From: a virus
Length of the DNA: 64,000 nucleotides
Strand: one strand, 5' to 3'
IMG/VR virus record: IMGVR_UViG_3300037419_002082
Coordinates: 1-64,000 of that record
The notes under the pieces are model-generated. The model saw only the letters and a list, made by a program, of their open reading frames with translations, searched no databases and was not told the origin of the DNA. Shown here in pieces: positions 39,345-64,000 of this stretch (the stretch's first letter is position 1; every line of letters starts with the position of its first letter). Both the position numbers and the translations under genes were made by a program.

Positions 39345-39782
39345 ATGTTGTATCAAATTTTAGCATTAACTAAGCAGCAAGCATTTCTAAGCAGTTTAAT
39401 TACACTGCTAGTATATGTATATGGATTAGTTAGTACACCTCTTTTTTGGATTCTTGTATTTTTTTCGGCAATTGATTTCATTTTAGGAGTATATGCTGCT
39501 TGGAGAAGTAAAAAATTAAATTGGGATAAGTGCTTAGATGGGATTGCTAATAAGGTTTTCATCGGCATAATTATCTTCATGTCAGCTCTAATAGATTTTG
39601 CTTTAACTTACTTTGGTATAAATACTAGAGGAATTTTTCATAATTTTATTATGGCTGCATTATTAACAAGAGAGTTGGGCAGTACAATTAAAAATGCTAA
39701 TAAAGCTAAACTATGGATTCCTAAAATGATTAAGGAAGCCCATAAGAAACTATCCCAACTTAGTAAGGAGGATAAAAAATAA
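39345..39782 (+). CDS. Holin (phage holin family 4-like)
   Basis: Transmembrane segments; 'IDFILG', 'ELGSTIKN', 'IP'. Confidence 0.8.
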   Translation: MLYQILALTKQQAFLSSLITLLVYVYGLVSTPLFWILVFFSAIDFILGVYAAWRSKKLNWDKCLDGIANKVFIGIIIFMSALIDFALTYFGINTRGIFHNFIMAALLTRELGSTIKNANKAKLWIPKMIKEAHKKLSQLSKEDKK

Positions 39783-40636
39783 TGGTAAAAGTTGCGTTAA
39801 GTTATGGTCATGGCGCTAACACATATGAAACTAAGCATTCAAAGTTTGTTGTAGTTAATGGAAAAGTTTATGAAGAGCATACACATAACTGGCAAGTAGG
39901 TGTACGTGTTAGAGATATCCTAAAAGCTCATGGAGTAGAAATTTTAGAATTACAACCACCTAATGGTAATGATGTACCTCTTCAAACAAGAACAGATAAA
40001 GCAAATGCATGGAAGGCAGACTTATATTGGTCTATCCATTCAAATGCTGGTGCTGCATCTGCAAAAGGTTGGTGTGGCTTTTATTGGAAAGGTTCTGCAA
40101 GTGGAGAGAAAGCAGCAAAGTTATATGCAAAGAATGTTGCAGCACTTGGTCTTCCACTTTATTCTGGTGATGGTATTTATCCATCAGAAAAAGGAACATG
40201 GTCTGATTTCCATGAACTAAGGGAATCACATATGCCTGCTGTATTAACAGAAAATGGTTTTATGACTAATGCTGAAGATTTTAAGTATATCTTTGAAAAC
40301 AAAGATGGGTACTATGATAAAGTAGCAGTTGCACATGCAAAAGCTATTTTAGAATATTTTGGTATTGCTTATAAAGCACCTGCTGCACCTGTAATATCAA
40401 AACCTGCTACTCCAACTAATAAAGAGGGCTGGGTGAAAGAAGATTCTATATGGTATTTTTATAAAGATGGCGAGAAATTCAAAGGCGGCTGGTTACAAGA
40501 TAAAGGTAAATGGTATTATTTAGAGCCATCTGCTGGAAGAATGGTTGTTGGCCATCAAATAATTGGAAATAAACCATACCATTTTGAAGAATCTGGAGCA
40601 CTAATTATTACAAATGAGGACGGAGTGATTCAATAA
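39782..40636 (+). CDS. Endolysin: N-acetylmuramoyl-L-alanine amidase (Amidase_3) with cell-wall-binding repeats
   Basis: 'GHG', 'SIHSNA', 'PAVLTENGFMTN'; WYY repeats. Confidence 0.9.
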   Translation: MVKVALSYGHGANTYETKHSKFVVVNGKVYEEHTHNWQVGVRVRDILKAHGVEILELQPPNGNDVPLQTRTDKANAWKADLYWSIHSNAGAASAKGWCGFYWKGSASGEKAAKLYAKNVAALGLPLYSGDGIYPSEKGTWSDFHELRESHMPAVLTENGFMTNAEDFKYIFENKDGYYDKVAVAHAKAILEYFGIAYKAPAAPVISKPATPTNKEGWVKEDSIWYFYKDGEKFKGGWLQDKGKWYYLEPSAGRMVVGHQIIGNKPYHFEESGALIITNEDGVIQ

Positions 40637-47743: not shown

Positions 47744-47824
47744 ATTTTCACCCCAATAAAAAAGATAGAGAAGCTGAATCTCTATCAATTATATTTTACA
47801 TGTAATTACGATTTATAAAAGGTT

Positions 47825-48556
47825 TCACATCCAATCATCAATGTTAGTGGAATTTTGTATTGAATTTTTATAATGCGAATTTTCTTTTTTTACTTCTTTC
47901 TTCTTATTTTTATTTCTCATATCTTCCTTATACCAGTAATTATAAAATTGAGTCCAAACTGGGAATTTACACATAGGTGATATTTCTATGCATTTTTTTA
48001 CATCATCGTATGTCATACCATGATTAGCCATATAATTAGCTATAGTATCTGTAGCTTTAATTTTAAAAGACATACCTCTATTATACTGAGGATTATATAA
48101 AAAATACATTTTGGATAAGTCTTGTATATCTAATTGTAAATCAATAAATTCTTTTACATTAGCTGGCTTTAAACTACATGGCATATAATAATCATTCTTA
48201 TTTGCATCTACTTTAGAATAATCTATTTTATCTGCCCTATTAGTATTATATCCTTCTATTATAGTATTAAACTTATCTATATAGTAATTTTCTCTATGAT
48301 GCATATAATTACTTACTAATTTTTTATTTTCTATTCTATCAGTATTAATAATTTCTAATACTTTAAATTCAAAATTATTTAATCCATATTCTTCATAATC
48401 TTTTTGTAATCTTTTATTATGTTTATTTCTTATTAATTCTTTATAATGGCCATATATTCTATTAGGTAATAATAAAGTTTGACCTACATATTTTTTATTA
48501 TTAATAATATTTTCTATTAAATAAATACTTTCTTTAATATCAAAATAACTTTTCAT
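47825..48556 (-). CDS. GIY-YIG nuclease-domain protein with uncharacterised C-terminal domain
   Basis: 'SIYLIEN..N.KKYVGQT...RI..H...L', 'RE.YYI', 'GYN'. Confidence 0.75.
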   Translation of the reverse strand: MKSYFDIKESIYLIENIINNKKYVGQTLLLPNRIYGHYKELIRNKHNKRLQKDYEEYGLNNFEFKVLEIINTDRIENKKLVSNYMHHRENYYIDKFNTIIEGYNTNRADKIDYSKVDANKNDYYMPCSLKPANVKEFIDLQLDIQDLSKMYFLYNPQYNRGMSFKIKATDTIANYMANHGMTYDDVKKCIEISPMCKFPVWTQFYNYWYKEDMRNKNKKKEVKKENSHYKNSIQNSTNIDDWM

Positions 48557-48981: not shown

Positions 48982-49449
48982 ATGTCCGAATATTGGGAGA
49001 GCTGGCAATTAAATCTTTTAGACGAATATATTCTTGGTTATTCTGCTTTTAATTCGCAATGGGAATTAGCAGAAGAGCTTGGAAAGTCTTTAAATGCTGT
49101 AAAGATAAAATTAAGCAGAAGACGCCAGTCCATTCAAGAGGAAGAAAGAGAATTGACTTTTGATGAATACAAAATGTTCTTATCCAATAGGTTTGATAAG
49201 ACTACAGAACAAATTGCATCTCTTATTAATTCTTCTACTCTTTTTTTGATGAACGAATTGGACGAGATTGATTCATTGGAATGTTGTGAATATTTTGAAG
49301 AAGGTTATAAAGATAGAGTACCTTCTATTGATGAAATTAATACTTTCATTAGATTGTATAAAAAAGGTAGAAATGCCTTTCAAATTGCCCACATCCTAAA
49401 CCGCCCCATTGAAAAAGTACAGGAGATGATTATATCATATGAAGTCTAA
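48982..49449 (+). CDS. Hypothetical multi-HTH DNA-binding protein
   Basis: 'ELAEELGKSLNAVKIKL' and 'AFQIAHILNRP'. Confidence 0.6.
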   Translation: MSEYWESWQLNLLDEYILGYSAFNSQWELAEELGKSLNAVKIKLSRRRQSIQEEERELTFDEYKMFLSNRFDKTTEQIASLINSSTLFLMNELDEIDSLECCEYFEEGYKDRVPSIDEINTFIRLYKKGRNAFQIAHILNRPIEKVQEMIISYEV

Positions 49450-49879
49450 GCATATTTTTAATACAATAAGAGTGGACAAATCTATTCCGCTCCCTTATCA
49501 AAAAAGAGATACTGATGCAGGTCATGATGTTTACGCAGCAGAAACTAAATGGATTTGGCCTTGGACTACAAGAACAGTAAAGTCTAATCATCGGATTCAT
49601 ATTACCGATGGATTATTTGGACTAATCCAATCAAGAAGTGGTATTAGGAAAAGAGGATTACTTATTGATGGAGTTATTGATGAAGGGTACCAAGGAATAT
49701 TTGGCCTTATTATATCTAACGTTAATATCTTTCCTAGAAGAATTAAAGCAGGAGAAAGAGTAGCACAGATTATCTATTTGGAACCGCATAAAGTTCAGCA
49801 CCATGAAGTTGATGAATTTTCAACAGAGACTGAACGCGGTAATGATGGCGGTCTTTGGCGGAAAGAATATAAAAAGTAG
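49439..49879 (+). CDS. dut: Trimeric dUTPase-family protein (divergent motif V)
   Basis: 'DAGHD', 'SRSG', 'GVIDEGYQG', 'RVAQ', 'TERG'. Confidence 0.82.
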   Translation: MKSKHIFNTIRVDKSIPLPYQKRDTDAGHDVYAAETKWIWPWTTRTVKSNHRIHITDGLFGLIQSRSGIRKRGLLIDGVIDEGYQGIFGLIISNVNIFPRRIKAGERVAQIIYLEPHKVQHHEVDEFSTETERGNDGGLWRKEYKK

Positions 49880-51550: not shown

Positions 51551-51646
51551 TTTGAAAGCTTAATAATATATTATGTGAAACCATCTCTTATAGAGGTGGT
51601 TTTTTCTTTTATAATGAAATCATATTAAATAGAAAGAAGTGATTAT

Positions 51647-51796
51647 ATGGAAATTAAAATATCTAAAGATGAAGTATTTAATGCAATAAAAGAAGATTTA
51701 AAAAAAAGAGGTTTAAATTTTGATAGTGCTATTATTTCCATGAATAACTTAGGTGGAGCTAATATTATTTTAATTAAAGATGGGAGAAAAATATAA
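51647..51796 (+). CDS. Small hypothetical protein (49 aa)
   Basis: Stop overlaps the glycosyltransferase start (TAATG). Confidence 0.5.
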   Translation: MEIKISKDEVFNAIKEDLKKRGLNFDSAIISMNNLGGANIILIKDGRKI

Positions 51797-52974
51797 TGGC
51801 AAACATCCTTTATTACCCACAAATGAGTATGTATGACAAACAAACTAAAGAATTACTCCCAGCTGCAGACGGTAATATTAACATGATGCGTAATACTATA
51901 TTGGAATGGAAAAAATATCGTCCTGATGATGTATTTTATATTTTATTACCATCTGAATTAAACTTCAGTGATAAACTAGCAAAGATTTTACCACCAGGAA
52001 CTAATAATGCTGCTCCATTATTTTATGATTCTTATGTAGTATCTGCTAGAATTAATCGCTTTAACTTTCCAATGAATGAAATTTCTTCTATATTAAAGAA
52101 TATCAAAATTGATTTACTTATCAATGATGTCATTGAGTTAACTGGTAATTTTAAACAAATGTTTAGAATTGAATTTAATGACTCACCAAAGATTATTTCT
52201 AATATTCGCCATATAGATGATGTACTAAATACTTCATATATGTTTAGAGTATTAGATGGTATTATTCAATCTGATTTAGTAACAATACTTTCAAGTACAA
52301 TGCATAGTAAATTAGAATTACAACTTAGAGAAATGATTGGTGCTTGTAAGAATATTTTGGATAAGGTAAAAGTATTTGAGCCATCTATTTCTGAAGCAGA
52401 ATTATTCAAATATTCAATGAACGCTAAACAAAAAGATTTAAATAAAGTAATTATTACTTTCCCAGGCAGATTATCTATTGGAGAAGAAAGAAGAACTAAC
52501 TGGGATAAATTTACAAGCGCTATTTGGAAATTAAGGCAGAAAAGACAAGATTTTGAAGTTTATTTTACTGACCCAAATAATGCTTTAGATATTGGTACAG
52601 AAGTATCTCAGTGGACTAAAACTATTCCAAAAGATAGAAATACTTTTTTAAATCTCCTTAATAAAACAGATATTATTGTTTCATTAATGGATATTGAAGG
52701 TTTTGGTGGTATTAGTATTCGTGAAGGATTATTAATGGATTGTATGCCTATTATTCCTATGGCTCATGAATATAAGAAGATGGCACCAGAACATTATTTA
52801 GGATATATATATGATGCAGAAGTAAATCAATTAGTAGATGCTTTAGAGTGGGCAATATATAAAGTAAAAAATAGAGAAAAACCTTATGATTATAGAGCTT
52901 ATGGCAAGCAATTTACTGTTGAAGAGCAGTTTAAAAAGTTACTACCTAAAGTGGAGGAAGTTTTAAATGGCTGA
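51796..52974 (+). CDS. GT-B fold glycosyltransferase (candidate DNA heptosyltransferase)
   Basis: 'ITFPGRL' and 'DIIVS..DIEGFGGISIREG...C.PIIP' (GT4-like E..E motif). Confidence 0.75.
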   Translation: MANILYYPQMSMYDKQTKELLPAADGNINMMRNTILEWKKYRPDDVFYILLPSELNFSDKLAKILPPGTNNAAPLFYDSYVVSARINRFNFPMNEISSILKNIKIDLLINDVIELTGNFKQMFRIEFNDSPKIISNIRHIDDVLNTSYMFRVLDGIIQSDLVTILSSTMHSKLELQLREMIGACKNILDKVKVFEPSISEAELFKYSMNAKQKDLNKVIITFPGRLSIGEERRTNWDKFTSAIWKLRQKRQDFEVYFTDPNNALDIGTEVSQWTKTIPKDRNTFLNLLNKTDIIVSLMDIEGFGGISIREGLLMDCMPIIPMAHEYKKMAPEHYLGYIYDAEVNQLVDALEWAIYKVKNREKPYDYRAYGKQFTVEEQFKKLLPKVEEVLNG

Positions 52975-53554
52975 TTTTACTATGAATCTATTCCAATTAC
53001 ATGATTTAATAGGAAAGGTTGCTGGTTTAAAAGATGAAATTGAAAAAGCTGCTGAAGTCCTTGCCGAATGTGTTGCATATGGTGGTACTATCTACGTTAT
53101 GGGTAATGGTGGTTCTGCCGCTGACGCTAATCATTTCTCTGGTGAAATTTTGGGGAGATTTAAGCGAGAGCGTAAAGGTCTCGGCTGCGTTTCTCTTTCT
53201 GCTGATAATGCTACTATTACTGCTATTGCTAATGATTATGGGTTCGAGTATATTTTTGTTCGTCAGCTAGAAGGATTATTTGACCCATTAAAAGATGTAG
53301 TGTTTTCTATGACTACATCAGGAAATTCTCTCAATATTATTAAAGCATTAGATTATGTAGCAAAAGTTAGCGGTAAATCAGTAAATCTTCTTGGAAGAGA
53401 TGGCGGAAAGATAGCAGGGCAACCACAAGAAAATGAAATAAACATTATTATCCCAGCTCAAGATTCTGACCGCATCCAAGAGATGCATAAATTTATTCTT
53501 CATTATTTTGCTGAAGTTATTGAGGAGAGGTATTGCGAATTAAAATTAAATTAA
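52967..53554 (+). CDS. gmhA: Phosphoheptose (sedoheptulose-7-P) isomerase
   Basis: 'GNGGSAADA.HF.GE', 'TAIANDYG', 'TSGNS', 'RIQEMH'. Confidence 0.92.
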   Translation: MADFTMNLFQLHDLIGKVAGLKDEIEKAAEVLAECVAYGGTIYVMGNGGSAADANHFSGEILGRFKRERKGLGCVSLSADNATITAIANDYGFEYIFVRQLEGLFDPLKDVVFSMTTSGNSLNIIKALDYVAKVSGKSVNLLGRDGGKIAGQPQENEINIIIPAQDSDRIQEMHKFILHYFAEVIEERYCELKLN

Positions 53555-53569
53555 GAATGGAGTGTTAGT

Positions 53570-53749
53570 ATGCTAGGAGTAATTAAACAAGCAACAGAAA
53601 GTTCTGAAATGTGGCAATGGGCTTTCGCGCATCCTTATCTTTATACTTTAATTAAAATTGGTACACCTTCTTTTTATGCTATAGTCTTATATTTAGGCTT
53701 TAGAATAATTTCTACAGTAATGGGAGGAAATAAACGTAGATGGAATTAA
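53570..53749 (+). CDS. Small membrane protein (59 aa)
   Basis: GGAGTG RBS; one hydrophobic segment. Confidence 0.5.
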   Translation: MLGVIKQATESSEMWQWAFAHPYLYTLIKIGTPSFYAIVLYLGFRIISTVMGGNKRRWN

Positions 53750-53919
53750 GAGACGGCGATATTTATGAACAGATTAATAGTAAATTAAAATTTACTTTAA
53801 AACAAGAGACTCCAGTTACTTGGAGTCTTAGTCTTGACAACCCTAGTAAAATCATTTACCCTGAAGTGTATATGATTAGTTTATTGGAGAAGAACTTTAG
53901 GAAGGTGGAAAATGAATAA
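53740..53919 (+). CDS. Small hypothetical protein (59 aa)
   Basis: GGAGG RBS; overlaps both neighbours. Confidence 0.5.
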   Translation: MELRDGDIYEQINSKLKFTLKQETPVTWSLSLDNPSKIIYPEVYMISLLEKNFRKVENE

Positions 53920-54430
53920 AGCTATTTTCTTAGATAGAGACGGAGTCATTAATAAAAACACAGACTATGTAAATTGTATAGAAGATTTTCATATACTACC
54001 AAAAGTTAGAGATGCTTTAATGTTATTTAAACAAGCAGGATATAGAATCTTTGTTGTTACTAATCAAGGTGGCATTGAAAAAGGATTTTTAACAGAAGAA
54101 GATTTATATGAAATGCATGATTATATGATGAAAGAATTACCGGAAATAGAGGATTATAGATTTTGTCCTAGCTATGAATCATTTGGCAGAAAGCCTAATC
54201 CAGGTATGATTTATGATTTAGCATCAGCACATGAAATTCATACTGGGAAATCCTGGATGATTGGTGATATGTTTTCAGATATTGAAGCAGGAATAAATGC
54301 TGGTTGTAAAACTGCTTTAGTAATAAATAGAATCCAAGAATCAGTTAAAGCATCAGGTAAAGCTAATGTTATGGGTGATAGTTTATATCAAGTTGCAATT
54401 ATGATATTAGAATTGGAGGGTTATTTATGA
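53912..54430 (+). CDS. gmhB: D,D-heptose 1,7-bisphosphate phosphatase (HAD IIIA)
   Basis: 'FLDRDGVIN', 'VTNQGGI', 'RKPNPGM', 'MIGD..SDI.AG'. Confidence 0.88.
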   Translation: MNKAIFLDRDGVINKNTDYVNCIEDFHILPKVRDALMLFKQAGYRIFVVTNQGGIEKGFLTEEDLYEMHDYMMKELPEIEDYRFCPSYESFGRKPNPGMIYDLASAHEIHTGKSWMIGDMFSDIEAGINAGCKTALVINRIQESVKASGKANVMGDSLYQVAIMILELEGYL

Positions 54431-54597
54431 GATACGAAAATATTCTTTATAATGAAGTAATTTATCATTTAGAAGAAAAGTGGGGTAGAAAATTAAATGA
54501 CCACGAAAAACATGTTCTAATTGAAGGCTATCAGTTTGGCAGAAAAGTAGAAGCAGAAAACGAAATTAAAATGTTTTATGATACTAGAAGGGATTAA
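54427..54597 (+). CDS. Small hypothetical protein (56 aa)
   Basis: GGAGG RBS; ATGA overlap with gmhB. Confidence 0.55.
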   Translation: MRYENILYNEVIYHLEEKWGRKLNDHEKHVLIEGYQFGRKVEAENEIKMFYDTRRD

Positions 54598-54611
54598 CCC
54601 TTCTTTTTTTT
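54587..54611 (+). terminator. Intrinsic terminator
   Basis: AGAAGGG-ATTAA-CCCTTCT followed by a T-run. Confidence 0.7.
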
Positions 54612-54695
54612 CTGTGTGAAACCTTTCATTTTAGTGTTATTTAAAAATATATAATTAGAATATGAAAAGATTAAAAGATGAATGGAGAGATGTTA

Positions 54696-55640
54696 ATGTT
54701 AGATTTTTCAGATTTAAAAGTTCTTGTTCTAGGTGATGTAGCACTTGATATAGTAACAGAAGGGCCAAGCTATAGACAATCACCAGAGGCACCAGTTCCT
54801 GTTATATCTAATCCAACCACTACTTATTCTTTAGGAATGGCAGCTAATGTGGCATTAAATCTTCATAGACTTGGTGCCAATTTAGCTTTCTCATTTAATA
54901 TTGGAGAAGACGAAAAAGGAGAATTATTTGGAAAATTATTAGATTCCAATTTTTCTGGAGTTCATCATACTAGAACTGGTAAAAAAGATTATTTTACAAC
55001 TGTAAAGCAAAGAATAGTTGCTAATAATCAACAAGTTGCACGAATTGATTTTGAAGATAGCTTAACTGTTGATAAATTAGATGGATTTATTAAATCTATT
55101 GAAAGAAGAGTAAATAGAGGCGCTTATTATGATTTAATTATCATTTCAGATTATAATAAGGGAATTATTACTAAGGAATCTTGGGAGATTCTAGAACCTC
55201 TATTATGGCAATTATCTAAAAGATTCTTCGTTGATACTAAAAAGAAAGACGTTCTTAATTATTATGAAGGAATGTATATATTCCCTAATAAAAAAGAGAT
55301 GCAAGAAATCATGGATTATAATAATTGTAATACTCGTAATGAATTACGTAAAGAAATGGATTTAGATTTCCTTGTAGAAACTGCAAGCGAAGAGGGGGCT
55401 TACCTTTATAAAGATGATGGCAAGATTTATCATTGTGAGCCATTTAAAGCTAATGTAGTAGATGTTACTGGCTGTGGAGATACTTTTGTAGCAGCATTTG
55501 CTTTATACTATACAAAGTATATGGATAAGAAAGCTGCATTAGGATTTGCTAATTATTGTTGTTCTAAGGTAATTGAAAGAAAAGGTACTACTCCAGTATT
55601 ATTAAGTGAGGTGCTTGATTTTGAAGCTCAAAGCATTTAG
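54696..55640 (+). CDS. hldA: D-glycero-beta-D-manno-heptose-7-phosphate kinase (HldE/RfaE domain I, PfkB fold)
   Basis: 'VLGD..LD', 'SPEAPVPV', 'G.AANVA.N', 'SDYNKG', 'DVTG.GDT'. Confidence 0.88.
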   Translation: MLDFSDLKVLVLGDVALDIVTEGPSYRQSPEAPVPVISNPTTTYSLGMAANVALNLHRLGANLAFSFNIGEDEKGELFGKLLDSNFSGVHHTRTGKKDYFTTVKQRIVANNQQVARIDFEDSLTVDKLDGFIKSIERRVNRGAYYDLIIISDYNKGIITKESWEILEPLLWQLSKRFFVDTKKKDVLNYYEGMYIFPNKKEMQEIMDYNNCNTRNELRKEMDLDFLVETASEEGAYLYKDDGKIYHCEPFKANVVDVTGCGDTFVAAFALYYTKYMDKKAALGFANYCCSKVIERKGTTPVLLSEVLDFEAQSI

Positions 55641-56133
55641 TCATGAATATTTTAAAGCATTAAAGGAAATTAGAAAAAAACGTATTATTTTTTTTAATGG
55701 CTGCTTTGATATTATTCACCCAGGTCATTTGGCATTAATTAATAAAGCATTATCAAATAAAAACTTAACTAATAATGCTGTAGTTATTTGTGGTATTAAT
55801 TCTGATGAATCTGCAAAGTCACAAAAGAAAAGTCATCCATTAGTAAATAATGAAACTAGTAGGGCAGAAATGCTATTAGCTCTTGGTGTAGACCATGTAA
55901 TTATATTTGACGATGCTACTCCAAAGAATGTTATTATGAGTTTAATGCCAGACTTAGTAATAACAACTTCGGAATACTCAAGCAGATTTGGCAACTGTGA
56001 AGATTTAGATTTCTGTAGGGGACATGATATAGATGTTATTTCTATTGCAACTATTGCAGGTTATTCTACATCTAGTATTTACAGAAAAATCGAAGAACAA
56101 GTCAAAGCTAAAGTAAGGGAGAGCTTACAATGA
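55606..56133 (+). CDS. hldC: Heptose-1-phosphate nucleotidyltransferase (HldE/RfaE domain II)
   Basis: 'NGCFDIIHPGH', 'GINSDES', 'VDHV.IF...TP', 'GYSTS.I'. Confidence 0.85.
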   Translation: MRCLILKLKAFSHEYFKALKEIRKKRIIFFNGCFDIIHPGHLALINKALSNKNLTNNAVVICGINSDESAKSQKKSHPLVNNETSRAEMLLALGVDHVIIFDDATPKNVIMSLMPDLVITTSEYSSRFGNCEDLDFCRGHDIDVISIATIAGYSTSSIYRKIEEQVKAKVRESLQ

Positions 56134-56672
56134 TATTAAAGCACAAGCTATTTGCCATTGACTTTGATGGAACAATTGCTTATGATGCATATCCAGGAGT
56201 GGGAGAACTCATTCCTGGAGCAAAGGAAACAATGATTAAAATCAAAGAACTTGGTGGTAAGATAGCAATTTGGACTTGCAGAACAGACCAATGGGCTCAG
56301 GATGCTAAAGATTTCTTGGATAAGAATGGCATTCCATATGATAAATTTAATAAGCCTTTTGATGAACATGTAAATCTTTATGGAGGAGACAATTCTCGTA
56401 AAGTATTTGCTGATGTATACATTGATGATAGAAGTATTCATTTTGGCGGCAAAACTGTAGACTGGTATTTACTACAGGATATGATTTTTGGTTATGATAA
56501 ATGGAAAGTTGGAGATACAATAGAGTGCTTAGAAGATTGTTGGGGAAATTTTAAAAAAGGCGAAAGGTTTGAAATAACTGCATTAAAAGAAGATGCAGAT
56601 TTTATTTCTTTTGGACCTATAGGTGGAGCAGGTTATTGGGATACTCAAGAATATTTTAAGAAGGTGAATTAA
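56130..56672 (+). CDS. HAD-superfamily phosphatase
   Basis: 'IDFDGTI', 'WTCR', 'RK..ADVYIDDR'. Confidence 0.8.
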   Translation: MILKHKLFAIDFDGTIAYDAYPGVGELIPGAKETMIKIKELGGKIAIWTCRTDQWAQDAKDFLDKNGIPYDKFNKPFDEHVNLYGGDNSRKVFADVYIDDRSIHFGGKTVDWYLLQDMIFGYDKWKVGDTIECLEDCWGNFKKGERFEITALKEDADFISFGPIGGAGYWDTQEYFKKVN

Positions 56673-56903
56673 ATGAGTAGTAGTTCTGGAGTAAATAGGA
56701 ATGAAATTAATTACAATGAAAAAACAAAATATGTTTTAACAAAAGAGGAAGAAGGCTTTGTTTATAGTCAAATTAGTTATAGAAAAATCTTTTTTGAACA
56801 AGAAATTCAAAAGGCAGCAGGGATTTCAGACATTAAAAGAATAAAAGAATGTGTTAGAGCATTAGATATGATTGAAACTATTCAAAAAAAATTGTTAGGG
56901 TGA
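56673..56903 (+). CDS. Hypothetical protein
   Basis: ORF in operon with AGGTG RBS. Confidence 0.55.
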   Translation: MSSSSGVNRNEINYNEKTKYVLTKEEEGFVYSQISYRKIFFEQEIQKAAGISDIKRIKECVRALDMIETIQKKLLG

Positions 56904-56907
56904 TAAT

Positions 56908-57897
56908 ATGTTCTTAATATTTGAATCGCCAAATAAATCTGGAAAAACAACTTTGGCAAGAATGATTGCAGATTATTTGAATATTCAATATGTAAAATTA
57001 AACAATATTAATGTAGTAGAAGATACAGCAATTAAAGATGGTATATCTATTTCTACACATTCGCAATTAGAAACTATTACTCAGCTACATGAGAAAGGGG
57101 TGATGAAAGATGTTGTCTTGGATAGATTCCACGTTTCGGAATTTGTGTATAAAAATCTACTTGGAAGAACCTATGATATTTCATACATTGATGATATTGA
57201 GAAACGATTGTCAAAATACAATGATATTCTTTTGGTACGTTGTAGAACATCTCTTCCAGTATTAAAAGATAGATGGTATGATGAAAAACTTATTCCAACT
57301 CAAAAAGTAACGGAAGAATCTAGATTATATAATTACTTCTATACAAAGACAAAACTACCAGTAATTGAAATAGATACAGATGGTTCTGTAGAAAAAGCAT
57401 TTGCAGAATTAGTATCTAAATTAGAGTTACATGGAGTATCTCAAAAGTATTTCAGACAAAGAAGAATTACACATGACCAAGCTATGATGAATGTTGCTAA
57501 AATTATGGCAAAGAGAAGTCCATGCTTAACTAGACAAGTTGGTTGTGTAATGACAGAAGATGGCTTTGTAGTTGGAGTAGGATATAATGGTCCACCATCA
57601 GGATTAAAGCATGACCAAGTAGATATTAGAAAAGCAAAAGGATTTAAATCTGGAGAAGGATTAGATTTTAGTAGAGATGTTCATGCAGAACAAAATGCTA
57701 TGCAGCAGTCCGGTGTTAGAAGTAAAAGAGCAGGTAAATTGGAACTATTCACGACAGCATCACCTTGTATACATTGCATGAGGCAATGTATTCAAATTGG
57801 TATTGAGAGAATAGTTTATATTGAAAAATATAATCAACCTCTTGCTTGGGAAATGGCAGAAGAAGCAGGTATAGAAATGATTCAATATGAAGAATAG
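56908..57897 (+). CDS. Fusion of dNMP (thymidylate-kinase-like) kinase and dCMP deaminase
   Basis: P-loop 'ESPNKSGKTT' and 'LDR'; then 'RS.C..RQVG', 'GYNG.P', 'HAEQNA', 'PC..C'. Confidence 0.85.
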   Translation: MFLIFESPNKSGKTTLARMIADYLNIQYVKLNNINVVEDTAIKDGISISTHSQLETITQLHEKGVMKDVVLDRFHVSEFVYKNLLGRTYDISYIDDIEKRLSKYNDILLVRCRTSLPVLKDRWYDEKLIPTQKVTEESRLYNYFYTKTKLPVIEIDTDGSVEKAFAELVSKLELHGVSQKYFRQRRITHDQAMMNVAKIMAKRSPCLTRQVGCVMTEDGFVVGVGYNGPPSGLKHDQVDIRKAKGFKSGEGLDFSRDVHAEQNAMQQSGVRSKRAGKLELFTTASPCIHCMRQCIQIGIERIVYIEKYNQPLAWEMAEEAGIEMIQYEE

Positions 57898-57998
57898 AAA
57901 CTCTCTATTCTTCTTTTTTTTGTGAAACTGATAAAAAAATGGGTATAAAAAATGATATTCTATAATAGAAGAAAATAATTAAAAAAGAGGGTATAAAT

Positions 57999-58985
57999 AT
58001 GGATGCTTATATTTCATTAGAAAAAGCTTTACAAGGTACACTAGTTGATGTATGTGAAAAAGGAATTGTTACTTCTCCTAGAGGAAGGCAATCCAAAGAA
58101 TTAATTGGTCATGGTTATGTTTTAACTAATCCAAGAGCTAGAATTATCGGATTAGCAGCAAGAAATTTAAATCCATTTTATTTGGTAGGAAATCTATTAT
58201 GGGTTTTACGTCAATCAAATAAATTGGAAGTTATTAATTATTATAACCCACGAGGCTCAATGTTCAGTGATGATGGTGAAATTCTTCGTGGCGCTTATGG
58301 TAAACGTATTTTTGATTTTGATGGTATTAATCAATGGAAACAATGTTATAATGAATTAAAAGTAGACCCTGATTCACGTAGAGCTATTGTTTCTATTCAT
58401 TTACCACAGCATGATTGGACAGGTTCATTAGATACACCATGTACAGCGGATTTTCAATTCTTATTAAGAGATAATAAACTTCACATGGTAAATCATATGA
58501 GAAGTCAATCTGCTGCATTTGTTCAGCCATATGATGTATTCTTAATGACTATGATTCAAGAATTAATGGCTAATGAATTAGGAGTAGAATTAGGAATTTA
58601 CAAACATATTTGTAACTCATATCATTATTTTACTAATGAACAAGATATGGTAGATGCAATTATTGAAAGTGAAGATTATACACCATCTATGCAGCATATG
58701 GTTGGAGGAATGGCAGAAGTAAAACTTCTTTTAACTTTTGAAGCTTTAGCAAGAAAAGTAACAATTGAATTGGCACAACAAGGTTTACTAACAGATATTA
58801 AATATCTAGAAAGAGAATTGGATAAATTAGGTTTACCAACTTTCTGGAATAATATTGGAGAAGTACTAATTGCTAAAGCTATTAATCTGCTAGATGGTAA
58901 TAATGGTGCTACTTATTTAGATTATGTGCGAAATAGCATAAATAACGGTAATCCATTTAAAAAATTATTGCTTCAATTACATTAA
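57999..58985 (+). CDS. Divergent thymidylate-synthase-superfamily enzyme (cytosine-type; candidate dCMP-modifying enzyme)
   Basis: 'YG.R', 'SRR', catalytic 'PC', 'MRS', 'PYD' (Asp at the Asn177-equivalent position). Confidence 0.8.
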   Translation: MDAYISLEKALQGTLVDVCEKGIVTSPRGRQSKELIGHGYVLTNPRARIIGLAARNLNPFYLVGNLLWVLRQSNKLEVINYYNPRGSMFSDDGEILRGAYGKRIFDFDGINQWKQCYNELKVDPDSRRAIVSIHLPQHDWTGSLDTPCTADFQFLLRDNKLHMVNHMRSQSAAFVQPYDVFLMTMIQELMANELGVELGIYKHICNSYHYFTNEQDMVDAIIESEDYTPSMQHMVGGMAEVKLLLTFEALARKVTIELAQQGLLTDIKYLERELDKLGLPTFWNNIGEVLIAKAINLLDGNNGATYLDYVRNSINNGNPFKKLLLQLH

Positions 58986-59011: not shown

Positions 59012-59079
59012 TAATTTAAACTATATTGAGAATGATTCTCATTTATATACTAATAACATTTAACCAGGAGGGAGTTGAT

Positions 59080-59694
59080 ATGAAAAAACTCACTAAAAAG
59101 CAAGTTAAACTATTAGAAGATAATTTACCCTTTGTAACGTATGTTGCAAAAAGATATTTTAGCAAGACAGACTTTGATAAAAATAGGGATATAATTCAAG
59201 AAGGAATTTTTGCTATGGCTAAAGCTTTACCTAAGTATGACCCAGAAAAAGGAAAAATTACAACCTATTTATTTCCAACTTTAGATGGCCATTTAAAAAG
59301 GTATGTTCGTTATCAAGATAGATTAATTCCTATTCCGCATCAGAAGCATTTAAAACAGGAAACTATGGCTAAAGCAGAACAAGCTAAAAATGTATACTCT
59401 TTAGATTTGGAATACAAAGGAAGTGGAAATCAAGATAAGGAGCCGTATACTTTAATGCATGTTATTCCAGATAAGAAAACTGAAGAAATGGATGAAAAAA
59501 TTATAAATAAAATAGTTTTAATTGATGGTATTAAAACTCAGTTAGATTGGAGAGAAAAAGTAATTATTACTTATCGCTTCTATTTTGACCTTGACCAGAC
59601 ACAAATTGGTAAATTAATGGGAATATCACAGGTGCACACACATAGAATAATTAGTAAGGCTTTAGTTAAGCTAAAAAATTATATTACAAAGTAA
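59080..59694 (+). CDS. Fourth sigma-70-family factor (SigF/SigB-like)
   Basis: 'DIIQEGIFAM.KA..KYD', 'DQTQIGKLMGISQVHTHRI'; AGGAGG RBS. Confidence 0.85.
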   Translation: MKKLTKKQVKLLEDNLPFVTYVAKRYFSKTDFDKNRDIIQEGIFAMAKALPKYDPEKGKITTYLFPTLDGHLKRYVRYQDRLIPIPHQKHLKQETMAKAEQAKNVYSLDLEYKGSGNQDKEPYTLMHVIPDKKTEEMDEKIINKIVLIDGIKTQLDWREKVIITYRFYFDLDQTQIGKLMGISQVHTHRIISKALVKLKNYITK

Positions 59695-59770
59695 GAAACC
59701 TTTCAATCCCATATAGAACTTTTGTTATATAATAAAAATAAAAGATTATATTATGAATAGAGGTTATTAT

Positions 59771-60313
59771 ATGGACATCACGGTAGTTAATCCTATTCCA
59801 CAAAATGATATAGATGAAATTTTATCTAGTTATAATAAAGGTTTTAATGGATTAAAAGTAATTGGTCAAGGTTACAGTGCCCAAGTTTTAAAATATAAAA
59901 ATTATGCTATAAAAGCCTATGAAGATGAAGGCTTTAGTGACGGTGAAATATTAGAAAACTTTCAGGATAATGATTTATTTCCAAAATTATATTTCTACAA
60001 TGAATATTTTATGGTTACAGAATTTCTAAGTATAATTCCAGCATATCAATATTTTGAAAGAAATATTGGAATAGAACATGATGCAGAAGAAATATTCAAA
60101 TATTGTTGGCAAAAGGGCTTTAAAATTCAAGATATCCATGATGAAAATGTTGTTGTAACATTAGATGATAAATTAAAAATAATTGATGTTGGAATGTTTA
60201 AAAGAATATATGGCAATCCATCATTAGGTCAAATTATTAAAGAATCTAGTACAGATTTTATTGAGTTAGGAAATATAATAGAGCATATTAAAAGGCCACC
60301 TATAGCTATTTAA
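59771..60313 (+). CDS. Ser/Thr-protein-kinase-like (PKL) protein
   Basis: 'IGQGYSAQV', 'AIK', 'DIHDENV', 'IIDVG'. Confidence 0.75.
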   Translation: MDITVVNPIPQNDIDEILSSYNKGFNGLKVIGQGYSAQVLKYKNYAIKAYEDEGFSDGEILENFQDNDLFPKLYFYNEYFMVTEFLSIIPAYQYFERNIGIEHDAEEIFKYCWQKGFKIQDIHDENVVVTLDDKLKIIDVGMFKRIYGNPSLGQIIKESSTDFIELGNIIEHIKRPPIAI

Positions 60314-60388: not shown

Positions 60389-60580
60389 ATGGATTTAAAA
60401 AAGCTAAGTTATAAATGCAGAGATAAAATTGCTGATAATTTTATTATTTTTCACGAAATTTTTGAAAATAAAGATTTATCAAATGAAAGTAAACTTAATT
60501 TAATGAAAATGCTCAAAAATGGTATAATTGTTGAATTAGAAGAAATGGAAGATTATATAATAGAGGAGATGAATAAATGA
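60389..60580 (+). CDS. Hypothetical protein
   Basis: Short ORF coupled to dnaE. Confidence 0.5.
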   Translation: MDLKKLSYKCRDKIADNFIIFHEIFENKDLSNESKLNLMKMLKNGIIVELEEMEDYIIEEMNK

Positions 60581-63500
60581 TACATCTTCGTATGCATGAC
60601 CATTATTCAATAAAACGTGCATTCGGTACTCCAAGAGATTATTTATTAAAAGCAGAAGAACTTGGATTAAAGTATTTATCAATTACTAATTATGGTAATG
60701 ACCATGCATATCCTTATTATCGTTCTGAATTAAATTACCTTAATTCTCATGGCCATAATATTGACATTCAATTCCTTTATGGAGTAGAGTTTTATATTAC
60801 TCAGGATATGACAGCAAAAGGGCGTCCTAATTTTGATGATATAAACTATGGTAATGATACTGTTATTTTTATGGCAAAAAATAATGAAGGTTATGTAGAA
60901 TTACTTAAAATTTTATCTGATGCCAATTTATCAGAACATTATTTTACCGTTCCAAGAATAGACTTTGATTATCTTACAGAAATTAATTCAGAAAATTTAG
61001 TTTGTATTGTACCGATAGATTTTGGGACTATTCCAAAATTACTATTAGCGAATGAAGATGCTTATGCCAAAGATTTATTAGGCCTTTTCAAAGGAGTATT
61101 TGGGGAAGATTTATACTTTGAAATTTCTGCCAATGTATCTCCTGTTAATAAAATTCTTAATGCTAAAATGATAGAATTAGCAATGGAGAATAATATTAAA
61201 TGTATAGCATCAGCTAATGTACATTATCCTAGTAAAGAAGATAAGAAAGTACATGATGTAGTATTAGCATTTGGTCAAAAGAAAACTTTTGCTGAAAATG
61301 ATTTATATTCACTCGGTACTGATGATAATTATCTAAGAGATAGAGAATCAGTGGAACGAGGTTTACATGAGAATGGAGTCAATGAAATTCTAATAGAAGA
61401 ATTCATTCTAAATACTGAAAGAATTGCTGCTAAATGTTCATTTGATTTAGAAATAGCACCTATGAGCTTACCTAATACAGATGTTATTTTACCAGAAGAA
61501 TATAAAGGTAAACCTGTTGAATATTTTCAATATTTAATAGAAAAAGGTTGGAATGAATTAATAGTTCCACGTATAGATTCAGGAGAATGGGACGAAATTA
61601 AATCCGAAGATATTCCTACCTATATTGAACGTAAAGAATACGAATTTGATATGATAAAAAATATCTTTACAATTAAAGACCCTAACCATCCTATGAAAAA
61701 TGGTTTTGTTGATTACTTCTTAATAGTATCGGATTATACTAAGTGGGCTAAAGGAATAGACAGAAGGATAATGAAAGATTTTCCTATAATTGAAGTCGGG
61801 CCTGCGCGAGGAAGTGTATCCGGTTCGCTTATTGGGCACTTAACTAGAATGTCAACAGTCGATCCGCTACCTTGGGGACTTACCTTTGAGCGATTCATAA
61901 ATCCGGAAAGAATTAGTTGGCCGGACGTGGATTTAGATTTTGACCCCGATTTTGCTTGGGGTGTAGAACGTTATCTCATAGAAACTTATGGATACGACCA
62001 TGTTGCCCATATCCTAACATTCCAAACTGCAGCTAGTAAAAAGACTTTTGAGGCTGTTTCAAAAGTAATGACTGGTAGCTATGGAAAATATAAAGAAAAA
62101 GTTAAAAGAGAAAAATGGGTTTCTGAAAATCAATTAAAGAAATTAGTACCAATGGATGCTAAAGAAGCAAGAGAAATCCAAAACTTAATTGATTCCAATT
62201 ATAGCCTAAAAGATTTAATTGACCCAAATAGCAATTGTACTATTGATGAATTACACGAAAAATCACAGCTATCAGCTTATAAAGAAATGTTTGAAATAGC
62301 TGCTAAAATGGAAGGTTTAATAACTTCTACTGGTTCTCATCCAGGAGCTGTTATTATAACAGAAAAACCTATTTACAATTATACTTCCCGAGTAAACACA
62401 GCAAAATATGATGATGGTTATCCATTAGTTACAACTTCTTATGAGAAATACGCATTAGAAGAAGTAAACACAATGAAATTTGACTTATTGAGATTAAGAG
62501 AATTAACAATTGTAAAAGCTTGTTTAGGATTTATAGAAGAATCAACTGGAGTAAAGGTTGATTTAGACAGAATAAATCCATTTGACATTGAATCAAATAA
62601 AAAGATTTTGCAGCTTATGAAAGATGGAGACCTTGATGGAGTATTTCAATTTTCATCACACCTTTATAAATCTATTATAGAAGAAGTACTTTCTGGAATA
62701 GAAAGTCGTGGAGATGAAGTTGTTGCTAAAGATTTATTTAATATTATTGTAGCTCTTGAAGCTTTAGGGCGACCAGGTCCATTAGAAGGTGGAATGGTTC
62801 CAACATTTGCAGCAGGTCTTGCAGACCCAGATAGTGTAGAAGAAATACACCCAGTAGTTGATAAAATTCTTTCAGAAACATATGGAAATATGTTATATCA
62901 GGAACAATTGATGTTTATACTACGATTTATGGGTGGATTTTCATTAGGTCAAGCAGATATGGTTCGACGAGGTATTGCATCTGGTAAACTAGAAAAAATT
63001 GAAGAACAACGTGGTGCATTTATAGAAGGTGTAGAAAGGGTTCAGTTAGAAGAAAATCCTAACACTACTCCAGAAGAAATGGCATCATTAATTGAATTAG
63101 CACATCATATTTTTGACTTAATGGCAAAATGGGCAGGATACGGATTTAATAAAGCGCACTCAGTTGGTTATGGATTTTTAACATTACGTGGTGCTTATTT
63201 AAAAGCTAATTATAAATCGCACTTTATGGCAGCTCTTATGTCAGCACAGAAAGATGAAAATAAACTTACTGGATATATAGATGAAATAAGAGCCAGAGGT
63301 ATTCAAGTGCTTCCACCTAAAATAAATAAATCTTTAAAAGGATTTACAGTAGTTGGAGAAGACATTTTATTTGGACTCCATGCCATCAAAGGTGTAGGAG
63401 CTGCAGCAATAGAAAAAATAATTTCTAATTATCCTTATAATGGTATTATGGATTTTATTTTGAAAGCTGGAAATAAAACAGTATTACCACCATTAATTAA

Positions 63501-64000
63501 AGCAGGATATTTTGAAGAGGATAAAAAATTCCTTTTAAAATATTGGGAAGTAATGGTTGAAATTAAAAATTGTAAAACTAAAGCTGAGGAGTCATTAGTT
63601 GATTATCTCTTAGAAAATGGTATAAATCAGGATAACCAGATGGACATAGGAAAACGATTTGAAAATATCATATATGAGAAATCATTAAAAAAGAGAAATC
63701 CAAAGACTGTAGCAGAATGCAAAGCTTTAATTCATAGGGAAGAATATTCACATCTTGAATTACTTACTATGGAAAAAGATGTTCTTGGATTATATTTATC
63801 TGAAAGCCCATTAGATAAATTTAGAGATATTATTGTAAGCCAAACAACTTTATGTAATAATATCAAAGAGCATAAAATGAATGAAGAATTTTATGTAGTG
63901 GGTATGGTTTTAGAAACTCCTCCAAAGAGAAAAGATAAAAATGGTAATTATATGGCATTCTTGAAATTACAAATGTATGATGGAATACTAGATGTACCAG
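60577..64000 (+). CDS. dnaE: DNA polymerase III alpha subunit (family C), truncated by the window end; missing from the ORF track
   Basis: ATG at 60577 (MIHLRMHDHYS, PHP domain); 'GPARGS', 'FERFINPERISWPDVDLDF', 'GSHPGAVII', 'KFDLL', 'YQEQ', 'GYGFNKAHS'. Confidence 0.92.
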   Translation, partial: MIHLRMHDHYSIKRAFGTPRDYLLKAEELGLKYLSITNYGNDHAYPYYRSELNYLNSHGHNIDIQFLYGVEFYITQDMTAKGRPNFDDINYGNDTVIFMAKNNEGYVELLKILSDANLSEHYFTVPRIDFDYLTEINSENLVCIVPIDFGTIPKLLLANEDAYAKDLLGLFKGVFGEDLYFEISANVSPVNKILNAKMIELAMENNIKCIASANVHYPSKEDKKVHDVVLAFGQKKTFAENDLYSLGTDDNYLRDRESVERGLHENGVNEILIEEFILNTERIAAKCSFDLEIAPMSLPNTDVILPEEYKGKPVEYFQYLIEKGWNELIVPRIDSGEWDEIKSEDIPTYIERKEYEFDMIKNIFTIKDPNHPMKNGFVDYFLIVSDYTKWAKGIDRRIMKDFPIIEVGPARGSVSGSLIGHLTRMSTVDPLPWGLTFERFINPERISWPDVDLDFDPDFAWGVERYLIETYGYDHVAHILTFQTAASKKTFEAVSKVMTGSYGKYKEKVKREKWVSENQLKKLVPMDAKEAREIQNLIDSNYSLKDLIDPNSNCTIDELHEKSQLSAYKEMFEIAAKMEGLITSTGSHPGAVIITEKPIYNYTSRVNTAKYDDGYPLVTTSYEKYALEEVNTMKFDLLRLRELTIVKACLGFIEESTGVKVDLDRINPFDIESNKKILQLMKDGDLDGVFQFSSHLYKSIIEEVLSGIESRGDEVVAKDLFNIIVALEALGRPGPLEGGMVPTFAAGLADPDSVEEIHPVVDKILSETYGNMLYQEQLMFILRFMGGFSLGQADMVRRGIASGKLEKIEEQRGAFIEGVERVQLEENPNTTPEEMASLIELAHHIFDLMAKWAGYGFNKAHSVGYGFLTLRGAYLKANYKSHFMAALMSAQKDENKLTGYIDEIRARGIQVLPPKINKSLKGFTVVGEDILFGLHAIKGVGAAAIEKIISNYPYNGIMDFILKAGNKTVLPPLIKAGYFEEDKKFLLKYWEVMVEIKNCKTKAEESLVDYLLENGINQDNQMDIGKRFENIIYEKSLKKRNPKTVAECKALIHREEYSHLELLTMEKDVLGLYLSESPLDKFRDIIVSQTTLCNNIKEHKMNEEFYVVGMVLETPPKRKDKNGNYMAFLKLQMYDGILDVP

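Follow-up and report, generated by a model that had tools for sequence, protein, structure and literature searches.

Gene content and conservation of the block

IMGVR_UViG_3300037419_002082 is an uncultured virus record of 102,215 bases in IMG/VR, of the linear class and ~71 % complete. We analysed its first 64 kb (64,000 nucleotides), hereafter the window, which has a GC content of ~30 %. Calling of open reading frames (ORFs) places nine co-directional genes at 51796-58985 on the + strand, with genes for a glycosyltransferase (GT), for heptose synthesis, for a kinase-deaminase fusion and for a divergent homologue of thymidylate synthase (TS) (Table 1). Judged by its gene content, this block probably encodes a phage pathway that replaces or decorates the cytosine of DNA with a heptosylated, C5-oxygenated cytosine. 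All genes that a first-pass annotation of the same DNA had named were recovered at the positions it gave, on the + strand.

Families were assigned by searches of Pfam, NCBIfam, PHROGs and PDB sequences, with AF2 models and VIA structure matching for the GT and VIA for the fusion. The GT gene overlaps gmhA by 8 nt, and four small ORFs of the block (53570-53749, 53740-53919, 54427-54597 and 56673-56903) have no counterpart in the related locus described below. The replicative polymerase, which matches the 'DNA polymerase III subunit alpha' of Geobacillus phage GBK1 (tblastn 1e-102), starts 1.6 kb downstream of the block.

Table 1. Positions of the block genes, of neighbouring features and of the comparison loci with a gp50-like protein (window coordinates unless a locus is named)
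Feature	Position	Strand	Basis
GT-B (GT4-like) glycosyltransferase, candidate heptosyltransferase on C5-oxygenated cytosine	51796..52974	+	AF2/VIA, phrog_3891
GmhA-type sedoheptulose-7-phosphate isomerase (SIS domain)	52967..53554	+	NF010546, TIGR00441, PDB 1tk9
GmhB-type heptose-1,7-bisphosphate 7-phosphatase (HAD-IIIA)	53912..54430	+	NF006506
HldE domain-I / HldA-type heptose-7-phosphate 1-kinase (PfkB family)	54678..55640	+	TIGR02198, PDB 4e84
HldE domain-II / HldC-type heptose-1-phosphate nucleotidyltransferase	55606..56133	+	TIGR02199, phrog_7878
Second HAD phosphatase (BT0820 family)	56130..56672	+	NF046079, phrog_1238, PDB 2obb
YorR/thymidylate-kinase-like kinase (residues ~1-175) fused to zinc dCMP-deaminase domain (~185-329)	56908..57897	+	
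Cytosine-type TS homologue, MilA-like scaffold, without folate-chemistry residues	57999..58985	+	PDB MilA match, alignment
dUTPase, accessory nucleotide-pool enzyme upstream of the block	49439..49879	+	Pfam dUTPase 1.6e-20
DnaE-type (Pol III alpha) replicative DNA polymerase	60577..64000, continuing to 64167 of the record	+	tblastn
Terminator-like hairpin, then promoter-like motif (GAAAC-N-TATAAT) ahead of the GT	51577..51615	+	
Second promoter-like motif copy, ahead of the kinase	54618-54655		
Terminator-like hairpins	54586-54604; 57889-57913		
gp50-like Peptidase_U32 loci	L014:10928-12076; L013:11002-12117; L018-L034		

A scan of metagenomes with the GT profile returned a single locus, a 25.8-kb contig (L003; L numbers denote comparison loci), in which the block is syntenic at about 50 % amino acid identity, with values from 38 to 73 %, GmhB reaching 73 %. 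The gene order in this contig is GT, GmhA, GmhB, kinase, nucleotidyltransferase, HAD phosphatase, fusion, TS homologue and sigma factor. In the protein database, five contig sizes (71734, 61775, 56796, 103750 and 25593) recur among the homologues of all three of GT, heptose kinase and fusion; six further sizes match for GT and kinase and three further for GT and fusion, linkage here being read indirectly from equal contig sizes. These results indicate that the block is a conserved unit. Neither a megablast search with the block nor a tblastn search with the GT found a match in cultured phages, and a scan of IMG/VR with the GT profile returned nothing besides the phage's own record.

Thymidylate synthase homologue

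Further on in the record lie genes for a canonical ThyA (Pfam 6.6e-114) and for a dTMP kinase, which makes both the divergent TS homologue and the second kinase dispensable for dTTP. From this gene content the divergent homologue must presumably have a role other than dTTP synthesis. We aligned it with the phage's own ThyA, T4 gp42, RB69 gp48, the dUMP hydroxymethylase of SP-10 and gp319 of phage G, and read the residues in ThyA numbering. C146 and R166 are kept, and the protein carries E58N, L143D, D169S, G173V and N177D. The pair N177D and L143D marks cytosine-specific, non-methylating enzymes (PMC13326640, section 24). G173V and the loss of an acidic residue at 169 are common to the phage protein and RB69 gp48, which reads N at 169 and V at 173. 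RB69 gp48 and DLP3 gp80 are flavin-associated 5-hydroxy-dCMP synthases, for which D169N has been proposed as diagnostic (PMC13326640, sections 24 and 28).

The 150 nearest 50 % cluster representatives, out of 1.84 billion proteins, comprise 83 of folate type (E,D,C,R,D,G,D), 62 with the signature of the query (non-acidic 58, S169, V/L/I/M at 173, D177) and 3 with N169. In a tree built after masking of the signature columns, proteins of the query type group in one clade (n = 64, support 0.92), sister to the folate type, and the Asn variants nest within the query clade as sisters of Ser proteins. PHROG membership fails to split the subtypes, T4 gp42 and RB69 gp48 both being in phrog_160. The query-type signature occurs in none of the TS homologues that we read from cultured phages (nattely, Molly, Papyrus, SP-10, phage G, T4 and RB69).

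Query-type homologues in IMG/VR adjoin a Peptidase_U32-family protein that is 36 % identical (7e-61) to RB69 gp50. RB69 gp50 itself (L006:6493-7662; Pfam Peptidase_U32 7.4e-11, phrog_5757) lies beside gp48 and is not discussed in PMC13326640. In all 17 of 17 IMG/VR loci with a gp50-like protein the adjacent TS homologue is either D169N (13, T4-like) or D169S (4) and never of folate type; these loci also carry a small kinase and a glycosyltransferase. The U32 family includes the O2-independent hydroxylases UbiU/V, TrhP and RlhA. By analogy with these, it is conceivable that the gp50-like protein could provide an anaerobic route to 5-hydroxycytosine (5hoC).

One alternative to a 5hoC acceptor is that the same pathway runs through a folate-dependent dCMP hydroxymethylase, as T4 gp42 and MilA are, and yields 5-(heptosyloxymethyl)cytosine, the kind of base that has a precedent in the metavirome cluster 'contig 53' discussed below. 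The CMP hydroxymethylase MilA is indeed the best PDB relative of the phage protein (5b6d, 3.5e-37 over residues 25-229, compared with 9e-14 for the RB69-type structure 9iqu), the overall scaffold and the C-terminal extension resemble those of MilA and phage G gp319, and L143D and N177D are common to hydroxymethylases. However, the folate-type references that we examined, namely T4 gp42, SP-10, phage G, nattely and the ThyA of this phage, all keep E58 and D169, as does MilA, while the TS homologue has Asn, Ser and, at G173, Val. The signature clade is moreover separate from the 83 folate-type representatives, and the genes that adjoin it, for a gp50-like U32 protein and for gp79-like GTs, are the ones found in 5hoC systems. 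We therefore regard a hydroxymethylase here as unlikely.

Because the folate-handling residues E58 and D169 are gone and the clade keeps the neighbours of RB69-type synthases, 5hoC would be a more likely acceptor than 5-hydroxymethylcytosine (5hmC). The first-pass annotation had offered 5hoC as its second option, and both the TS signature and the neighbouring genes favour it over 5hmC. As to the immediate product of the enzyme, the sequence makes 5-hydroxy-dCMP somewhat more probable than the other candidates combined; 5-hydroxymethyl-dCMP is a lesser possibility, and some other product is rather improbable.

Three TS homologues of cultured phages were also noted. Gp76 of Mycobacterium phage Papyrus (L011:5980-6981) has the uracil-type Asn at N177 together with D169N, E58R and G173I, and the tree places it inside the non-folate clade; nearby are genes for a nucleoside deoxyribosyltransferase and a MazG-like pyrophosphatase, and gp76 may be a 5-hydroxy-dUMP-type enzyme. 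Maribacter phage Molly_1 (L012:4288-9047) encodes in a row a UDP-glucose dehydrogenase, a nucleotide-sugar epimerase, a 'beta glucosyl transferase' and a uracil-type TS homologue with the folate signature (EDCRDGN), which suggests a hexuronic-acid modification of hydroxymethyluracil. In the giant Bacillus phage G (gp313-gp319, L009:1296-7032) the gene for a folate-type cytosine TS homologue (EDCRDGD) lies close to those for a dCMP deaminase and an 'alpha glucosyl transferase', a combination that suggests DNA of the glucosyl-hmC type.

Glycosyltransferase

The GT itself has no Pfam hit, although some of its 38 homologues carry PF00534. Its AF2 model has a pLDDT of 87, and VIA matches the model to the retaining GT4 enzymes MshA (3c4q, Z 30.3 over 357 residues), sucrose-phosphate synthase (6kih, Z 29.7) and BshA (Z 29.3). 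The position of the GT4 E-x7-E motif reads E-G-F-G-G-I-S-I-R-E, with one residue extra; the second Glu of the motif (E310) is invariant in 19 homologues, and the first is less than 90 % conserved. No GT9 chain is among the structural neighbours listed.

Sequence profiles lead from this enzyme to one phage family. Its sole PHROG match is phrog_3891 (2.4e-5), in which DLP3 gp79 scores 7.8e-113. A hidden Markov model (HMM) of 14 gp79 orthologues, run against 379 targets, finds the GT of locus L016 and most members of the GT family (9e-12 to 0.5, this GT at 1.4e-6), and no other protein of this phage falls below 0.09. In the reverse direction, a profile of 19 GT homologues run against 860 ORFs of the comparison loci picks up the L014-type GT and the RB69-like gp46:47 orthologues and nothing else. 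An hhalign comparison of the GT with gp79 gives E 2.2e-4 over 222 columns, with short common motifs around invariant residues. Profile comparisons match the GT to none of the other RB69, DLP3 or T4 cluster proteins compared; hhalign of the GT family against T4 beta-GT gives a probability of 0.1 %, and DLP3 gp77 likewise gives nothing, though a distant kinship with the T4 enzymes through the GT-B fold may exist. The match to the gp79 family is thus weak, reciprocal and specific at the level of sequence, and the GT is by the same comparisons tied to DNA-modification clusters.

Two IMG/VR loci that lack heptose genes bear on this tie. In L014 a GT 29 % identical to ours (3e-32) sits between a P-loop kinase and a DnaE polymerase, with a TS homologue of the same signature alongside. 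In L016 (3615-6201) a D169S TS homologue, a gp79-like GT (5.6e-23) and a UDP-galactopyranose mutase stand in a row, which parallels the galactofuranose route reportedly proposed for Rhizobium phage RL38JI.

Alternatively, the heptose pathway and the GT may act away from DNA, on a virion protein, a host cell-wall polymer, an S-layer protein or a small heptosyl nucleoside, with the nucleotide genes merely adjacent. The GT4 fold is generic for the synthesis of cell-envelope glycans, cyanophages carry heptose kinase genes without a known DNA role, and MilA itself works in the synthesis of a nucleoside antibiotic. An ORF with an Fn3 domain (Pfam) lies directly upstream of the block, and the BFVD neighbours of the GT include actinophage glycosyltransferases. 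Against these stand the gp79 family, housed in DNA-modification clusters, as the only family-level phage relatives of the GT, and the L014 homologue, which keeps its place among TS homologue, kinase and polymerase in phages without heptose genes. In addition, the genes for GT and GmhA overlap, L003 preserves an unbroken, collinear block that takes in the TS homologue and kinase, and no other GT was found, the record having no second glycosyltransferase of family 2. We consider an action off DNA improbable. The isoelectric point, tried as a proxy for DNA binding by the GT, was uninformative: values range from 5.0 to 9.1 within the family, and the beta-GT of nattely has 5.2.

Enzymes for heptose supply

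GmhA matches NF010546 (2e-49), TIGR00441 (5.6e-43) and PDB 1tk9 (5.5e-42), and among the isomerase models it matches only those of GmhA and DiaA and none of KdsD or GutQ. GmhB matches NF006506 (1.3e-36). The kinase scores 4.4e-65 with TIGR02198 and 5e-20 with ribokinase, and its PDB match is HldA (4e84, 2e-32); its clade holds together at ≥40 % identity inside the phage group, followed by bacterial HldE at 35 %. The nucleotidyltransferase matches TIGR02199 (4.2e-25) and phrog_7878 (9.1e-19). For all four proteins a heptose enzyme is the best NCBIfam match by a wide margin, and the PDB matches agree.

The second HAD phosphatase belongs to the BT0820 family (NF046079, 8.9e-23; PDB 2obb, 1.4e-14) and to phrog_1238 (1.8e-28). 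The latter also takes RB69 gp51 (1.9e-42) and DLP3 gp81 (3.2e-38), which are sugar-bisphosphate phosphatases of the arabinose route; pairwise BLAST of the phage protein with RB69 gp51 gave nothing, though both match this PHROG.

The absence of an HldD epimerase, which the first-pass annotation had noted for the window, extends to the whole 102-kb record, in which no HldD-type epimerase (PF01370) was found. ADP-D,D-heptose is expected because no epimerase is present. Alternatively, the GmhA-, HldE- and GmhB-like enzymes may have drifted to a phosphosugar other than heptose, as the RB69 set makes UDP-arabinose, and DNA would then carry another glycan. In favour of this, all four enzymes score below equivalog cut-offs, with only 30-50 % identity to characterised enzymes, and the second phosphatase comes from an arabinose-pathway PHROG. 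Against it, each protein is closest to a heptose enzyme in NCBIfam and PDB (the kinase scores 220 bits, compared with 72 for ribokinase), the block has all four steps of a single pathway, and GmhA is without a KdsD or GutQ match. We consider such a drift very unlikely.

Kinase-deaminase fusion and nucleotide pools

The N-terminal domain of the fusion matches YorR (2.3e-7) and thymidylate kinase (9e-6) in profile searches against the PDB, and VIA gives Z scores of 16.4 for YorR and 16.0 for thymidylate kinase. YorR is also the PDB match given for DLP3 gp78 (PMC13326640). The deaminase domain (Pfam dCMP_cyt_deam_1, 3.1e-17) keeps the HAE and PCxxC motifs and resembles human dCMP deaminase (VIA Z 18.3). 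We found this fusion only in the present phage group, at ≥51 % identity. The PADLOC 'dCTPase' model matches the fusion solely through its deaminase domain, whose substrate may thus be dCMP or dCTP, and no MazG-type dCTPase (PF03819) was found in the 102-kb record, ~71 % complete, the control being positive in 12 of 14 genomes.

Proposed pathway

The following scheme is deduced from homology at each step. GmhA would convert host sedoheptulose-7-phosphate to D-glycero-D-manno-heptose-7-phosphate, the PfkB kinase would form heptose 1,7-bisphosphate, and GmhB, the phrog_1238 HAD phosphatase or both would remove the 7-phosphate. The nucleotidyltransferase would then give an NDP-heptose, probably ADP-D,D-heptose. 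In parallel, the conserved Cys of the TS homologue would attack C6 of dCMP, with the Asp at N177 selecting cytosine, and an oxygen function would be put on C5. The YorR-like kinase domain may phosphorylate the modified dCMP, the product of which the DnaE-type polymerase would incorporate, while dC nucleotides would be drained into dTTP by the deaminase domain of the fusion together with dUTPase, the separate canonical ThyA and dTMP kinase. Finally, the single gp79-family GT-B enzyme would attach heptose at the C5 oxygen, either once the base is in DNA or possibly at the stage of the mononucleotide, two possibilities that also stand for the arabinose system (PMC13326640, section 26). The expected benefit would be resistance to restriction and to CRISPR nucleases.

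A number of observations weigh against such a pathway. The likeness of the GT to gp79 amounts to 22 bits (hhalign probability 45 %). GT4-like enzymes are usually retaining and take alpha-linked donors, whereas the ADP-heptose of HldE-type pathways is beta-linked. The role of gp79 as first transferase was itself proposed from synteny and not shown (PMC13326640, section 26). All four heptose enzymes fall below the NCBIfam equivalog cut-offs, with bit scores of 168 against 276 for GmhA, 220 against 345 for the kinase, 126 against 178 for GmhB and 88 against 181 for the nucleotidyltransferase, and a related sugar is therefore possible. At position 169 the TS homologue has Ser, where the published diagnostic of 5-hydroxy-dCMP synthases is Asn; taken literally the D169N rule fails here, and what remains by alignment is a functional resemblance (non-acidic 169, G173V). 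In the tree the RB69-type clade is not its nearest relative and the T4-like N-V enzymes branch elsewhere; the change at D169 and G173 looks convergent between them and the query clade. The record holds no gp50-like Peptidase_U32 protein, though the DLP3 stretch gp72-90 is also without one and yet DLP3 makes 5hoC. Full exclusion of dC is unexplained because no MazG-type dCTPase was found, and the record is only ~71 % complete.

Within the proposed heptosylation of cytosine, a more specific version is that the E58N/D169S/G173V clade constitutes a second, independent branch of non-folate cytosine C5-oxygenases, which here would give 5-O-heptosylcytosine from phage-made ADP-heptose. We put this forward tentatively, at less than even confidence. 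If true, heptose would be ether-linked directly to the pyrimidine ring, in a Gram-positive cell without a heptose metabolism of its own, and the base is unreported. In a stronger form, the clade may carry out a third chemistry that is neither hydroxymethylation nor flavin/O2 hydroxylation.

Hypermodifications of phage DNA decide which restriction, CRISPR and type IV defences can stop a phage, and they also supply enzymes for the labelling and sequencing of DNA. If the proposed pathway is correct, glycosylation of 5hoC would extend from pentoses and hexoses to a heptose, and from Gram-negative T4-like phages to a DnaE-encoding phage of soil Bacillota. The signature of the acceptor-making enzymes would widen from D169N to D169S, whose clade is much larger and would escape present rules of prediction, and the phage would be a case of import of an entire ADP-heptose route into hosts whose lineage is not expected to have lipopolysaccharide (LPS).

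Comparison with known systems

By analogy, the block looks like a heptose version of the arabinosyl-5-hydroxycytosine system encoded by Acinetobacter phage DLP3 (gp76-83) and Escherichia phage RB69 (gp45-55) (Lee et al., NAR 2026, PMC13326640). The parts list next to the DNA polymerase corresponds nearly one for one: a non-folate cytosine-type TS homologue (N177D, L143D/E, non-acidic 169, G173V), a YorR-like kinase, a gp79-family GT-B enzyme (phrog_3891), a phrog_1238 HAD phosphatase, a SIS isomerase, a sugar kinase and a nucleotidyltransferase. The two differ in the sugar line, which consists here of GmhA, the PfkB kinase, GmhB and a cytidylyltransferase-like enzyme, whereas the arabinose of DLP3 and RB69 is supplied through a KdsD-like isomerase and an APH-like kinase/uridylyltransferase. 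They differ also in the TS homologue, here 328 aa on a MilA-like scaffold with Ser at 169 instead of Asn and without E58, compared with ~238 aa. Furthermore, the block has one GT where those clusters have two or three, its kinase forms one protein with a dCMP deaminase, the polymerase is of DnaE type in a phage of a Gram-positive host, and the gp50-like U32 protein is lacking.

The first-pass annotation took a heptosylated DNA base to be undescribed. This does not hold, since 5-heptosyl-hmC and 5-diheptosyl-hmC (449 and 641 u) have already been reconstituted from 'contig 53', a subclass III metavirome cluster, in a study which also reports that GT-B genes often neighbour TS homologues in metagenomes (bioRxiv 10.1101/2023.12.21.572611). 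In both systems heptose would be carried on a C5-oxygenated cytosine by a GT-B enzyme with BshA and MshA as PDB neighbours, and both have sugar-activation genes of their own. However, contig 53 works after replication through a C5-methyltransferase and a TET-like dioxygenase, while the system here would act before replication through the TS homologue; a Tet_JBP scan of the record gave no match, the control genomes being silent too. Contig 53 also has only a HAD/APH fusion and a cytidylyltransferase and relied on the E. coli metabolite pool, in contrast to the full pathway of the present phage. Our literature search found no paper linking ADP-heptose to phage hypermodification. What is new here, as far as gene content goes, is the complete phage-borne pathway from GmhA to the nucleotidyltransferase in a Bacillota phage, the D169S clade as the probable acceptor-maker, and the kinase-deaminase fusion.

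The logic of T4, on which the first-pass annotation had modelled the system, has a TS-family enzyme that modifies dCMP, a dNMP kinase and a dCMP deaminase that manage the pools, a GT that adds the sugar, and genes near the polymerase. The core of this scheme, with an NDP-heptose made by the phage, gains support from synteny and from the PHROGs of the GT and the HAD phosphatase, but T4 and 5hmC in particular are a poor fit, E58 and D169 being lost. The block is without the folate residues of gp42, without likeness to beta-GT and, as far as found, without a MazG-type dCTPase (gp56), and its sugar donor would be made by the phage where T4 uses UDP-glucose of the host.

The LPS pathway to ADP-L-glycero-beta-D-manno-heptose has the same four enzyme families together, in the order expected for one pathway. 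Unlike that pathway, the phage has the two HldE domains as two genes, no HldD epimerase and no GT9 heptosyltransferase, and the setting is a Bacillota phage. MilA, of mildiomycin biosynthesis, is the closest solved relative of the TS homologue and has Asp at both N177 and L143, but it has Glu and Asp at the E58 and D169 positions where the phage protein has Asn and Ser. No counterpart of MilB or MilC is among the family matches of the block (Pfam, NCBIfam and PHROGs).

Host, regulation and other features

The first-pass annotation assumed a Bacillota host, and the lysis genes of the phage now back it. The endolysin (39782-40636), of the Amidase_3 family, carries cell-wall repeats of choline-binding type and is preceded by a Phage_holin_4_1 holin. 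Relatives of the repeats occur in Bacillota genomes only (a Bacillus sp. metagenome-assembled genome, Neobacillus, Lachnospiraceae and Clostridium); in the search of genome contigs the cell-wall-binding repeats alone matched. Because lysin and holin point there, a Gram-positive Bacillota host is supported by sequence. DNA of the block is present in eleven sequencing runs, all of them soil or rhizosphere metagenomes, with no RNA run among those listed.

The motif GAAAY-N25-29-TATAAT has 15 copies in the window, where 2.7 are expected by chance, and is without a -35 box. The copies span 6730-60354, and among them are ones that precede replication genes and two of the block's units, examples being 47788-47826 (-), 59695-59733 and the two of Table 1. 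The motif is likely to represent a phage-specific promoter class. Together with the three terminator-like hairpins, the motif copies divide the block into predicted units that start at the GT, the kinase and the TS homologue.

Outside the window, at 67511-68149 of the record (L004:3511-4149) and 9 kb from the block, there is an ORF of 212 residues that resembles C5-cytosine DNA methylases over their N-terminal third alone (4.1e-9) and that overlaps, at its end, the start of the canonical thyA. It could be what is left of a truncated gene; with C5 already substituted, an active C5 methylase would serve no purpose. The phage also carries genes of a host-development type, namely the SigF/SigG-like sigma factor downstream of the block, a weak protein-kinase-like ORF, a DUF444 protein and a tyrosine recombinase (window 59026-60313; record 71265-72419 and 85727-86581).

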